DNA of 64,000 nt, from the NCBI GenBank assembly GCA_000165345.1, contig CM000432.1, positions 992,001-1,056,000 of the forward strand, written 5' to 3'. The notes beneath the pieces are model-generated. The model was not told where the DNA came from, made no database searches, and saw only the letters and a program-made list of their open reading frames with translations. The position numbers and the translations under genes are program-made. The first letter of the stretch is position 1; the number at the start of each line of letters is the position of its first letter. Positions 20,442 through 33,110 of the stretch are shown here, one piece after another.

Positions 20442-21729
20442 ATGGTAAGAAGACTCTCAAGTGAATTTGGAGATTTTATCGAATCTTACCCTTTAAAAAG
20501 AACTACTATACCTTATTTAGATGGAATATGGACTTGGATTGATTGTAATCCAAAAAATGTGGAAAAAATTACTAAAATAGTTTCTCAAGAAAGTATTACA
20601 GATATTGAAGATATTACTGAAGATTACTATTCAAGGAAAACTGTNAAACANTTNNCTNTNNNNGATCNAGNNNAGCTTANTAAATTNAATAGNNCTTCAT
20701 TAAAATATAATAATAATAATAATAATGAAAAATACGAATCTAATGAATTTGATATAATTGTTATACTTCATGGTTTATCAGGAACTGCTGGTGAATACTT
20801 TATGTTTATGAAGAATATGTTAAAATGCGGATATAGAATAATTTCTGTACAATATCCAATATATGATGATATTAATGATTGGATAAGATCATTTTCTCTT
20901 TTTTTAGATCAACTTGAATTGGATTCAATACATTTATATGGAAGTGATTTAGGTGGTTATTTAAGTATAATGTTTTCACAAGAATTTCCTAATCGAGTAA
21001 AATCATTAATTTTGTGTAATGCTTTTGTATCAACATTAAATTTACCATTACCATCAATAGCTTCAACATTTTTATATTTTTGTCCACAATTTATTCTTGT
21101 AAAGTTAATTTCTGAAATTTTCAAAAATAGAGAAATATTATATTCACCAATAGAAGATATGGGATTTTATTCAACAGTAACAAATATTCATAAAGATAAT
21201 AATTTATATGATAAATTATATAATNCAATCATTAAATTTGTGATTGGACAATTATATTCACTTTCAAATCATGATTTGGCTTCTAGATTAAGTTTTGTAT
21301 TATCAGGTGATGAAACATTATCAATATTAAATTTGACAAAATTTTCAAGTATATTAGATAATAAAAGAATTACATTTTATTTCAAGTCCTGATAATTCTT
21401 TTGATGATCATAATTTCGTTAATTCAATAATAAAATTTGAAAATGTTAAACTTGCTCAACTAAAATATGGTGGGGACTTTCCTCATCTTTCAAATCCTGA
21501 TGATATTTCATTATTTTGTCAAGTACATCTTAGAAATTGTAATGCTAAAAAATATACTTATAAATCATCTAATAATGATTTGGTTAATAATAAACAAGAA
21601 TCTCCTAAAAAGTTAACAAGTTTAAATTCAAATTTCAGTCCAACAACTAGTTCAAGTTTTTATGAAATGCCTTATCCAGGAAATATTATTCATCATGAAT
21701 CATCTTTTGATTATAATATGATTAATTGA
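20442..21729 (+). CDS. Maspardin (SPG21/ACP33)-like alpha/beta hydrolase. The reading frame is broken by a +1 frameshift near 21385 and by N bases at 20645-20694 and 21225, probably from sequence quality.
   Basis: The core FDIIVILHGLSGTAGEYFMFMKNMLKCGYRIISVQYPIYDD...IHLYGSDLGGYLS...RVKSLILCNAF parallels maspardin PLIFLPPVSGTADVFFRQ...GYRVIALQYPVY...VHLFGASLGGFLA...RVHSLILCNSF. After the stop at 21392 the +1 frame continues with ...AQLKYGGDFPHLSNPDDISLFCQVHLRNC, matching the maspardin C-terminus [29 protein letters not shown]. The stop is at 21727-21729. Confidence 0.7.
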
Positions 21730-27863: not shown

Positions 27864-28900
27864 ATGGAAGAATCTAAAGTAAGCTTTTTTTCTCTCTCTT
27901 TTCAATGCATTAAAAAAAAATATTATTATTTTCTTTGTTAAATTTAGGTATATCTAGTATCAGGTAAGTGGGGAAAGGGAAAAGGGAAAAGATAATAATA
28001 TCAAATATGAAAATTGAAACAAACTTTATAATTATTTATATATAGGAAATAAAAAAAAGGCTGAAGAATTTTTGAAAATTTTAGATGGAAAGTTAGATAT
28101 TGAATTGGTTGATATTGATTGTAAGTATTGTAAAATATATACATTTTAATAATCTAATAATTAAATATTGTTTATATAATAATTTTATTGATGAACTATA
28201 TATAAAGTACCTGAATTTCAAGGATCTCCTGAAGAAATTACCCTTCATAAATGTAAATCAGCTTATGAGAAAATTAAAAAGCCAGTTTTTGTTGAAGATA
28301 CTTCACTTTGTTTCAATGCATATAATGGACTTCCTGGACCATACGTGTAAGTTATTCAAAATATATTTATCCATTTTTTTTTTTTTTAACTTTAATCATT
28401 GATTATTAATCCAATAGGAAATGGTTTCTCAAATCTGTTGGAGCTCAAGGATTATACAATATGCTTGAAGCATATCAAGATAAATCTGCATATGCTATGA
28501 CTTTAATAGGATATTATGATGAAACAAAAATGTCTGATCCAATAATTTTTAAAGGAAAGATTGATGGTGAAATTGTTAAACCAAGAGGTGAAAAAGGTTT
28601 CAGTTGGGATCCTATTTTCAAACCTAATGGTCATTCTTTGTAAGTTTAAAAGTTTCCTATTATTAATATTATAAACTTGTAACTAATAATAATTTATTTA
28701 TAACTAGAGCATTCTCTGAAATGGATATGGATGTTAAGAACCAAATTTCTCATCGATATTTGTGTTTATTAAAAGTTTTAGTAAGTTTTTTCATCATATT
28801 ATATACTTTATATATTATTACATTCCATTTTTACTACATCTATATTTATCTTTTTCTTCTTCATAATATTAATTAGGAGTATTTTGAAAACCTAAAATAA
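27864..28900 (+). CDS. ITPA: Inosine triphosphate pyrophosphatase (ITPase/HAM1), 7 exons and 6 short GT-AG introns
   Basis: Exons are 27864-27878, 27948-27963, 28046-28120, 28208-28346, 28418-28639, 28708-28780 and 28877-28900, totalling 564 nt or 187 aa. Every intron starts GTAAG and ends AG. The spliced product is [117 protein letters not shown]...[61 protein letters not shown]. It aligns end to end with human ITPA (KKIVFVTGNAKKLEEV...DLPEYQGEPDEISIQKC...[25 protein letters not shown]...DKSAYALCTFAL...GRIVAPRG...FGWDPCFQPDGY...SHRFRALLELQEYF). Confidence 0.8.
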
Positions 28901-29510: not shown

Positions 29511-31505
29511 ATGACAATAAAAGTATATTTACATTTGCTAATACTAGCATTATTTATATATAATGGTCTTGTATATGGATTTGAAATGGGAAACATTGGG
29601 TCATATATAAGATCCCTAATAGGATTTAATAAAAAAAATGATTCATTCAATGAACAATCAATGTTCAAGTATAAAAGTTATATACAACATTTAAATCTAC
29701 TACAAGAATTAGAAACTAAATGTTCAAATATTATGAAAATCTACAAATATAACAGTGAAAAAGGACTATATTGNTGGTGAATCAAAATGTCAGTATTTAC
29801 ATATTAAGCTTGGAATATCAAATATTAATTATGATGTACCAAATATATTATTCATCTCTGGAATACATGGAGATGAAAAATTAGGTGTAGAAATTGCTAC
29901 TGAATTTATAAGCTCTATTTGTGATCAATATATTAATCATAATAATATTGGAATCAAGTATCTTTTAAGTACTAGAAATATATGGATTATTCCTATTGCT
30001 AATCCTTGGGGTTTTTATCATAATAAAAGAACTGAAGAAGAAATTGATGTTAATAGAGATTTTCCTTCAAAAAGTGGANAAAATTGTCTTAAAAGTGAAA
30101 GTTCTAAAATGATCTATAATTTGTTTAATCTTAAATCATTTGTATTTGTTGCAGCTTTACATGGTGGATTAAAAAGTATTTCTTATGGAAATGGCTATTT
30201 TGATGATATTGATGAAAATAACAAAANCTTTGAATNTATCGCTAAAGATTTACAAGCTTCAGCTGGTAAAATATTAAATAATAATGATATTCATAAATTA
30301 AATTACTTTTATGATCAAATTGGTAATATTGCAAAAACTGTATATCCAATAAAAGGAGGATTTGAAGATTGGTCTTTATATGGTTATAATGTAAGTCATA
30401 TATTATGTAGTGACTATATTCAAAAATCTCATTCTGCAAATAAAGGTGGATCTTTAACTTTTCTTATAGAAACTGATCATCAAAAAACTCCTAATCAAGA
30501 TACTTTAGGATCTAAATCTGATCTATTTAGCCTTATTGATCTTGATAAACTTTCTATACAACCATCTCATATTACCAGAAATATTAGAATGTTACTTAAA
30601 CTTACTGAATATACTTATCCAGATATTATTTTTTTTAATAAACCACCAAGTACCGTTTATTTTGGTCAAACTTTTATATTATATATAGCTATTATTGGCT
30701 GCTATTCTTTCAGTAATTTAAGGATTAAACTTGAAAATAATAACAATAATAATANTAATAATAATAATNATATTAATCATTATTNTAATACTANCTTAAA
30801 TTCTGAACAACAACCTATTTATCTTAATTTTTATGTTAATGAAGGATTAGATGGTCTACAAAATACTATTTATTATAAAAGATGTTCTTCTTTATTTCTA
30901 AATAATCAAGAAATCCAAGATATCCTTGATAATGANTCTTTNTATACATNTNAAGATAAATGTAATGAATCTAACTTACTTACAANAATTGTTAACCGAA
31001 GTTTTAGAGTTAAAAATAAATGTAAATCTATATATCAATTTAATAAATTTNAGCCTATANAAATTTTGNTAAGGTACCGAATGAGACAACAATTCTTAAT
31101 ACTATGAATGGTGAAATTGAAAATTTTCTATTAAANATTGAATTAGAATTTGATACTGAACTTACTCANACTATTTCATATTCTAATAAAAATATATTTG
31201 NAAAATTTACAANACTTAGATNTTCTCAAAATGGAAATAAAATTGATAGACCTATTATTATTCCGATTCAAAAAGATAATATATTATCAAAAAATATACA
31301 GAATTCTGAAATTCAAACACAATTCTATTCAAATTCATATGATCCATCAAAATCATTATTATTCTCTGGATTTCAAATTAAAGTTATTAAGCCTCAAGAA
31401 ATATTACAAATAGAATTCTCTACTTGTTCTGAATCTTCTATACAAAATATTGGTAAATGGTCTAAATCATGTCAAACTTTTCTTGACTTTACTAAAAAAA
31501 CTTAA
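29511..31505 (+). CDS. Secreted/membrane M14-family zinc carboxypeptidase-like protein. The frame is fragmented by N bases (29764, 30079, 30227, 30236, 30745-30794, 30936-31069, 31136-31222).
   Basis: The signal peptide is MTIKVYLHLLILALFIYNGLVYG. M14 landmarks are FISGIHGDEKLGVEIATEF (the H-x-x-E zinc ligands), NPWGFYHN, NRDFPSK and AALHGGLKSISYGNGY (the third His ligand). A hydrophobic segment is YFGQTFILYIAIIGCYSF. The ORF-track pieces 29511-29780, 29755-31107 and 31104-31505 are the same gene in shifted frames. Confidence 0.55.
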
Positions 31506-31588
31506 ATATACAAAATTATATAAATAATGGCTCTAATCCACTTTCTAATATTTTTCAATATCTTGAATCAAATAGAATTCCTAATTCT

Positions 31589-33110
31589 ATGAATTATCAA
31601 GTATTTCAAGATAATATTAAATATATTCAAAAAAATGTAAATCATGAATTAGAAGGTAACTTATATATTATACCAAGTGAACCAAGAACTTCTTCAATCA
31701 TTACAAAAAGTAACATGAATCATAATAATAATAATAATAATATTGAAATAATTAAACCAATTCCTTCACTATTAGAAAATGAAACTACAATTTCTACAAC
31801 TTTACCATTCTTTAATAATATTACTTTAGAACTTACTATTACTGTTAGTAATGAACCTAAAAATAATGGTGAATATGTAATATTAAAATTTGCAGAATTC
31901 TTAAATCTTTTAAATTATAATATATCTAAATATCATAATATAGAGAAAATATTGGATAATAATAATAAAGATTTAAATTATGTTGGAATAATTTCCATTA
32001 ATGATTTTTATAAAGATGATAATGAAGAATTTTCAATTTCAAAAAATTAAAGCAATTTCTAGACAGAGAATATATGAAATGATAACAGAAATACAAAATA
32101 GAGAAGATTTATATCNATTTAATGAAGATAGAAAAATAGAATTACTTGGTAAATATTATATAATTTTAAGATACCTTAAGAATAACTTAATTTCAATATC
32201 ATTAGGAAAAGTTCATATTGATAATTATATTAAAAATTCTCTTGGAATGAATATCAAAGAATTTCAAACATCTAAAAATAGTAATATCAATTTAATGGAA
32301 GATTTTAATAGTAATATAAATAATAACAATAATAATAATAATAATAATAATAATATTCAAGAAAAAAAATAATATTTATCAAGAACCATTAATAATTGCT
32401 TTAAAAGAACAACTAAAATCTTGGTGGTATAATAATTCAAAAGATTATATAGATTTTAGATTAGTTTTGGTATTTTGTGGATTACTTATGATAATATTTG
32501 CAATAATATTATTATTAATAAAGATAATGAGATATTATAATTGGGTACCTTTAAAATCTTTAAAATTAGAATTAAAGAAAAGATTCCGAACTAATTCAAA
32601 AATATTCATAATAGATATTTCAAGTGATGAAGATTCTGATATAAGTCAAGATAAGGAAAAGAAAAGAAAAAGAAGAGTTAAATCAAGAAAGATATATGAT
32701 TCACAAGAAATTAGTTATACTCCTAGAAGTGAATATTTATCAAATAAAAGTTATACTCTTTCTCAAAGATTTAATACAAATAATTCAGAAACAAGNAAAA
32801 AGTTAGAGATTCACCTTCAAATAGTCCAAGTTCAAAAGAATTTAAATTATCCAATTTAAATATGAGTTTAAGCCATTCATCATTATCATCTTTTGATAAC
32901 TTTAAATCCAGAACCAATACAATAAAAGAACTTGAAATAATTGAAATGGAGAGAAATTTAGATATTGGAATTACAAATCCAAATTCGAATAACAATAATA
33001 ATGATAATGATAATAATAATAATAATACAAAAAATACTTATACTGAATTATCTACATTTGTTTCAAAAAATAATAAATTTCAAGATCAAGATAATACCCA
33101 TGATCATTAA
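31589..33110 (+). other. Fragmented N/K-rich ORF series (31589-32050, 32001-32372, about 32380-32859, 32862-33110), probably one gene disrupted by N bases; contains a TM helix (VLVFCGLLMIIFAIILLLIKIM) followed by a basic K/R stretch
   Basis: Open frames abut or overlap, and the shifts coincide with N at 32116 and 32796. Low-complexity poly-Asn runs are present. No homology is recognised. Confidence 0.3.

Follow-up and report, generated by a model that had tools for sequence, protein, structure and literature searches.

The window analysed here, a 64,000-nt stretch of very AT-rich DNA (~26% GC), contains on its plus strand, at positions 27864–28900, a gene of seven exons and six introns. Spliced in silico, exons 1–7 add up to 564 nt (divisible by 3) and form a single open frame that runs from ATG to TAA and encodes 187 residues, which bears out the seven exons, the six short canonical introns, the protein length and the coordinates proposed in an initial annotation of the window. 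No N bases occur within the gene.

Exon 1 (27864–27878, 15 nt) provides the ATG, at which deposited Cryptosporidium parvum models also start, and encodes MEESK. It is followed in phase 0 by intron 1 (27879–27947, 69 nt, GTAAGC...AG), whose position, after codon 5 or, in C. bovis, after codon 6, is shared by five species. Exon 2 (27948–27963), which measures 16 nt in all five species, encodes VYLVS and the first base of the G11 codon, where intron 2 (27964–28045, 82 nt, GTAAGT...AG) intervenes in phase 1. Exon 3 (28046–28120, 75 nt, GNKKKAEEF...VDID) carries the phosphate-binding residues N12 and K15, both invariant in an alignment of 48 eukaryotic inosine triphosphate pyrophosphatases (ITPases), and intron 3 (28121–28207, 87 nt, GTAAGT...AG) falls in phase 1 within the Leu codon of the DLPE motif. 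The following segment, exon 4 (28208–28346, 139 nt), begins with LPEFQG and contains E38 and D66; it is bounded by intron 4 (28347–28417, 71 nt, GTAAGT...AG), which lies in phase 2 within the Val codon of GPYVKW. Exon 5 (28418–28639, 222 nt) begins with KWFLKS, contains F143, W145 and D146, and is separated by intron 5 (28640–28707, 68 nt, GTAAGT...AG, phase 2) from exon 6 (28708–28780, 73 nt), which begins with LAFSEM and bears the SHR signature. Most deposited models translate across intron 6 (28781–28876, 96 nt, GTAAGT...TTAATTAG, phase 0), and exon 7 (28877–28900, 24 nt) encodes EYFENLK and the TAA stop.

Five of the six introns possess a GTAAGT donor and one a GTAAGC donor, and the acceptor is AG in all six. 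The canonical GTAAG...AG form given in the initial annotation was correct, whereas its length range of 69–97 nt was not; the measured range is 68–96 nt. The introns (11–23% GC) can be compared with the exons (21–33% GC), and in boundaries, length and GC content they are typical of C. parvum spliceosomal introns, for which a mean of 99 bp and 22% GC has been published (PMC4637869). On the plus strand, GTAAGT occurs at five sites in 823 nt, against 0.22 expected from its window-wide density (Poisson P ~4e-6). If retained, introns 1–6 lead to an in-frame stop after 20, 10, 9, 1, 1, and 31 codons, respectively. Six-frame translation of the region yields the two ORF fragments that had been described, 28461–28643 and 28100–28402. 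Both exist, and the former is in the frame of exon 5, and hence of the ITPase. The latter (plus strand, 100 aa) overlaps intron 3, exon 4, and intron 4, but its frame is not that of the ITPase; since it differs from the frame of exon 4, the ORF seems to have arisen by chance.

The 187-residue product matches the Pfam family Ham1p_like (PF01725) over profile positions 1–185 of 186 (E = 4.8e-47; 160.7 bits against a cut-off of 22.5), and narrowly passes the NCBIfam RdgB/HAM1 model TIGR00042 (score 146.1; cut-off 145.35). Among solved structures, the best matches are those of human ITPA, 2car, 2j4e, and 2i5d (E = 5e-53 over query residues 4–186); for chain A of 2car, E = 4.8e-53, with query residues 4–186 aligned to chain residues 10–194. 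In the BLASTP alignment with human ITPA, 46% of 184 residues are identical, with a single gap of two residues. The searches of the spliced peptide by BLASTP and against PF01725, which had been suggested as a check on the initial annotation, thus returned a full-length family match and confirm its assignment as an ITPase/HAM1 gene.

All of the substrate-binding motifs that had been quoted are present in the translation: SGN at residues 10–12, DLPE at 35–38, GLPGPY at 76–81, DKSAY at 102–106, FSWDP at 143–147, SHR at 170–172, and LEYF at 180–183, together with a further motif at 64–73. E38, D66, F143, and R172 align with Glu44, Asp72, Phe149, and Arg178 of human ITPA, which have been named as crucial (PMC9016069), while W145 and D146 align with Trp151 and Asp152; SHR is an ITPase signature (PMC5075207). 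In an alignment of 48 eukaryotic homologues, the catalytic or substrate-discriminating positions and SHR are invariant, and each of the 34 invariant columns of this set, which includes the C. parvum protein, is intact in that protein. We estimate a probability of roughly 0.88 that the locus encodes a 187-residue ITPase of the ITPA/HAM1/RdgB family, corresponding to C. parvum cgd4_4150. The notion that short ORFs in AT-rich DNA were assembled by chance, in favour of which only the shortness of exons 1, 2, and 7 can be cited, is scarcely credible against full-length E-values of 1e-47 to 1e-53, the clustering of GTAAGT, and a structure that is conserved in five species.

Sequence comparison places the product closest to Cryptosporidium ITPase/Ham1 models, with identities of 98% for C. 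parvum, 96% for C. tyzzeri, 84% for both C. ubiquitum and C. canis, and 67% for C. bovis. C. parvum entries match the MEESK N-terminus and also, residue for residue, the translation of intron 6, which ends in HNIN; both occur in QOY42315.1 and the tail also in XP_001388085.1. C. hominis differs from the window at both ends, with MKESK and another tail. Judged by these termini, which match C. parvum and not C. hominis, the window is C. parvum, and the gene is cgd4_4150 (CPATCC_001949), identified by the locus tags CPCDC_4g4150, CPHLJ_4g4150, CHM_4g4150, and CPATCC_001949. The gene is already catalogued, contrary to its initial description as unannotated: in the records of C. parvum, C. hominis, C. 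tyzzeri, C. meleagridis, C. ubiquitum, C. canis, C. bovis, and others it goes under the name 'Inosine triphosphate pyrophosphatase-like' or 'Ham1 family protein', and cgd4_4150 is listed as a nucleoside-triphosphate pyrophosphatase of purine metabolism (PMC7371110). C. ubiquitum, C. bovis, and C. canis share the gene order of a Sel1-repeat gene (minus strand), Ham1, and an M14 peptidase gene.

The shortest of the 18 Cryptosporidium models that we retrieved has 144 aa and the longest 254 aa. The C. parvum IOWA-ATCC model (QOY42315.1, 211 aa) possesses exons 1–6 identical to those of the window and then reads through intron 6, so the expectation that gene finders would miss the gene is also contradicted. 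The 2004 Iowa II model (XP_001388085.1, 205 aa, partial) starts in intron 2, has identical exons 3–6, and likewise reads through intron 6. Two models of 156 aa end after exon 5, as do two models of 146 aa, in which MEESK or MKESK runs straight into AEEF, bypassing exon 2 and the beginning of exon 3. Other 3′ splices occur in the models of C. meleagridis (212 aa), the chipmunk genotype, and C. bovis. For C. ubiquitum, the deposited model renders the region around intron 2 incorrectly, reading SGKCNKKK and lacking LPEFQG, and the two C. canis assemblies carry different, apparently wrong models of 207 and 254 aa. Exon 7, with its EYF C-terminus, is present in 0 of the 18 retrieved models, and an exact look-up of the 187-residue sequence in a collection of 15 billion proteins found no entry.

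The orthologous loci of C. ubiquitum, C. bovis, C. canis, C. tyzzeri, and C. serpentis (a partial contig of 801 nt) were compared with the window. In all four complete loci, as in the window, the seven-exon structure yields an open frame of 187–189 aa. The six introns occupy identical codon positions and phases in C. parvum, C. tyzzeri, C. ubiquitum, C. canis, and C. bovis, and the internal exons measure 16, 75, 139, 222, and 73 nt in all five species; in the C. serpentis contig, introns 3–5 and the donor of intron 6 are found at the same sites. The C. canis locus is GC-rich, with introns of 49–64% GC compared to 11–27% in the other species, yet its intron positions and exon sizes are unchanged. 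Intron 2 of C. ubiquitum (locus L001, 1617–1699) has a GC donor (GCAAGT...AG) at the site where the other species have GT. Exon identity exceeded intron identity in every comparison: between C. parvum and C. ubiquitum it was 0.83–0.94 for exons 2–7 and 0.63–0.66 for the introns, and between C. parvum and C. canis 0.67–0.75 for the exons and 0.40–0.49 for the introns. From these alignments, the exon–intron structure is evidently fixed across the genus.

The same comparison bears on whether the apparent exons could be fragments of a decaying, non-functional ITPase pseudogene. The fragmented look of the six-frame translation is consistent with such decay, as is the reported loss of the orthologue in C. 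ryanae (PMC7371110). However, the spliced frames are free of frameshifts and internal stops in all five species, the alignment-invariant residues are kept (34 of 34), the exons are clearly more conserved than the introns, and the splice sites are all canonical except for the single GC–AG intron of C. ubiquitum; a pseudogene is thus very improbable. Both the pseudogene and the chance-ORF readings were rejected.

In C. ryanae, the cgd4_4150 orthologue has been reported lost along with IMP dehydrogenase and GMP synthase (PMC7371110), and, given this absence, the ITPase gene may be dispensable in some species. Loss of the ITPase beside the branch from IMP via XMP to GMP would fit a role tied to IMP/XMP flux. 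Alternatively, given how frequently this multi-intron gene has been mis-modelled, the absence in C. ryanae might be an annotation artefact.

The deposited six-exon model represents an alternative, in which intron 6 is kept and the product is a protein of 211 aa with a 31-residue tail. This is the C. parvum IOWA-ATCC annotation, the product of an effort that drew on expression data, and comparable models have been deposited for C. hominis, C. tyzzeri, and C. meleagridis; moreover, the frame remains open for 31 codons into intron 6, the length of which is a multiple of 3. Across species, however, the read-through tail varies both in length (31 aa in C. parvum, 28 in C. tyzzeri, 13 in C. ubiquitum, 3 in C. 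canis, and 5 in C. bovis) and in sequence, with the C. canis frame meeting a stop after only 3 codons. The annotated stop of the six-exon model, TAG (28874–28876), contains the AG acceptor of intron 6 itself, and the deposited models conflict with each other at the 3′ end, with lengths between 146 and 252 aa. By contrast, the spliced tail is conserved between species: EYFENLK in both C. parvum and C. tyzzeri, DYFENLS in C. ubiquitum, EYFKNPKT in C. canis, and HYFDKLDP in C. bovis. Exon 7 thereby keeps an [E/D/H]YF..L pattern across the five species, while the read-through tails are unrelated in sequence, and it fits both the human C-terminus and the family-wide EYF/YF ending (consensus ...KLxxYFxxxx among the 48 eukaryotic ITPases). 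We consider it improbable that the six-exon model describes the real product.

Nucleotide-level comparison of the 3′ end points in the same direction as the protein tails. Synonymous changes between species occur within the spliced tails, as in GAG TAT TTT of C. parvum versus GAA TAC TTC of C. canis. Relative to C. parvum, intron 6 is 0.63 identical in C. ubiquitum and 0.42 in C. canis, whereas the corresponding values for exon 7 are 0.83 and 0.74; the partial C. serpentis contig conserves the donor of intron 6 as well. With exon 7 included, the Pfam match ends at profile position 185 instead of 182 and scores ~2 bits higher. Exact DNA scans of metagenome contigs returned no match for the exon 6/7 junction, nor for the control, the generally accepted exon 4/5 junction, so that the first result carries no weight either way. 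Taken with the conserved tails, the comparisons between species make it very likely that exon 7 is real; we infer that the true C-terminus is its seven residues (EYFENLK) rather than the hydrophobic read-through tail. At the 3′ end, the 187-residue model is, on comparative grounds, better than every deposited model that we retrieved. An isoform that retains intron 6 may nevertheless exist, or even dominate, since the evidence-based IOWA-ATCC annotation reads through the intron.

The enzyme, its presence in Cryptosporidium, and exons 1–6 were known already, and intron 6 with exon 7 is the sole addition made here to the retrieved gene models, of which it is a minor correction. The relevance of this addition lies mainly in annotation quality: the ITPase of a major diarrhoeal pathogen has been deposited as at least six incompatible models of 146–252 aa, none of which has the conserved EYF C-terminus. 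We advise that the 187-residue form be used for expression, modelling, orthology, or selection analyses. In broader terms, it is likely that all retrieved ITPase models carry a wrong C-terminus, having missed a micro-exon of 24–27 nt behind an intron of 78–124 nt, and that the gene is a genus-wide, seven-exon 'intron fossil' within a ~90% intronless genome, with at least two introns that predate the split between alveolates and animals.

The initial annotation had remarked on an unusual intron density, and this holds against the genome as a whole. In C. parvum, ~10.8% of genes contain introns, and these have 2–10 exons with a mean of 2.6 (PMC4637869); given these statistics, a coding sequence of 564 nt divided among seven exons is in the upper tail for C. 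parvum but within the known range. To evaluate the age of the introns, their positions in other ITPase genes were established by exact spliced alignment of each protein to its own locus, while the human ITPA boundaries were deduced from the HGVS names c.124+21A>C and c.264-607_295+1267del (PMC5075207). Intron 3 (phase 1, in the Leu codon of DLPE) and intron 4 (phase 2, in the Val/Ile codon of GPY[V/I]KW) coincide exactly with introns of both Paramecium sonneborni and Styela clava, and also with the human ITPA exon boundaries c.124/125 and c.263/264. Intron 5 lies one codon from a phase-2 intron of Paramecium and Styela, which leaves its homology to that intron uncertain. For introns 1, 2, and 6, no matching intron occurs in the sampled Paramecium, Styela, human, Chlamydomonas, Haliotis, and Oopsacas genes. 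None of the eight introns of the Chlamydomonas incerta ITPase gene, and neither of the two in Haliotis rufescens, coincides with a Cryptosporidium intron; the Oopsacas minuta gene is intronless.

Judged by these coincidences, introns 3 and 4 represent ancestral eukaryotic positions, older than the alveolate/animal split, that have been retained. Both occur in a ciliate as well as in animals, and the high intron density is thus at least partly due to old introns kept in a genome that has lost most of its introns. The gene is a modest but clear case of ancestral intron positions that have persisted despite strong intron depletion of the genome.

Most neighbouring genes had been described as single-exon. 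The window fits an intron-poor genome, 71% of it being covered by ORFs that run for 150 aa or more without interruption, but a gamma-tubulin complex gene on the plus strand seems to be an exception. Here, ORFs 53415–54359 (Pfam GCP_N_terminal) and 54751–57390 (GCP_C_terminal) look like parts of one gamma-tubulin complex component gene, and the gap between them features GTAAGT at 54356 and 54620 and AG acceptors near 54444 and 54706. This arrangement suggests that the gene (53415–57390) contains two short introns around a middle exon of ~175 nt, and with these two apparent introns not every neighbour of the ITPase gene would be single-exon.

The window contains 41 N bases, single or in runs of 2–4, all of which fall within two stretches. 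One of these (20645–20694 and 21225) is located inside an alpha/beta-hydrolase ORF, and the other (29774–32796) in the M14 carboxypeptidase gene directly downstream of the ITPase gene. Orthologues of the carboxypeptidase measure 1156–1235 aa, and the gene is split here into ORFs 29755–31107 and 31589–32050. The N bases and the broken carboxypeptidase gene point to a low-quality stretch of the assembly.

We know of no biochemical characterisation of a Cryptosporidium ITPase. By homology, the enzyme would be Mg2+-dependent and would cleave (d)ITP and XTP, which are deaminated purine nucleotides, into the monophosphate and pyrophosphate, and this hydrolysis would keep deaminated nucleotides out of RNA and DNA. 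The guanine nucleotides of the parasite would be made via IMP and XMP. Production of active enzyme would require removal of all six introns, although retention of intron 6 would alter the last seven residues only.

Among known systems, human ITPA provides the closest structural comparison. The initial annotation had described the product as collinear with ITPase from the first strand to the C-terminal EYF, and alignment with human ITPA agrees: the two proteins are collinear end to end and have in common a C-terminal EYFxxL (EYFGSL in human). They differ in that the C. parvum protein has a shorter N-terminus, with two residues fewer before DLPE, and possesses Ser where human ITPA has Thr in the T/SGN motif; in addition, the equivalent of human Pro32 is not conserved. 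Similarity to bacterial RdgB structures is only distant (E = 1e-7 to 1e-13). E. coli RdgB, yeast Ham1, and TbITPA of Trypanosoma brucei (PMC9016069) belong to the same Ham1/RdgB family (PF01725, TIGR00042) as the C. parvum protein, and all three are experimentally characterised house-cleaning (d)ITP/XTP pyrophosphatases of other microbes.
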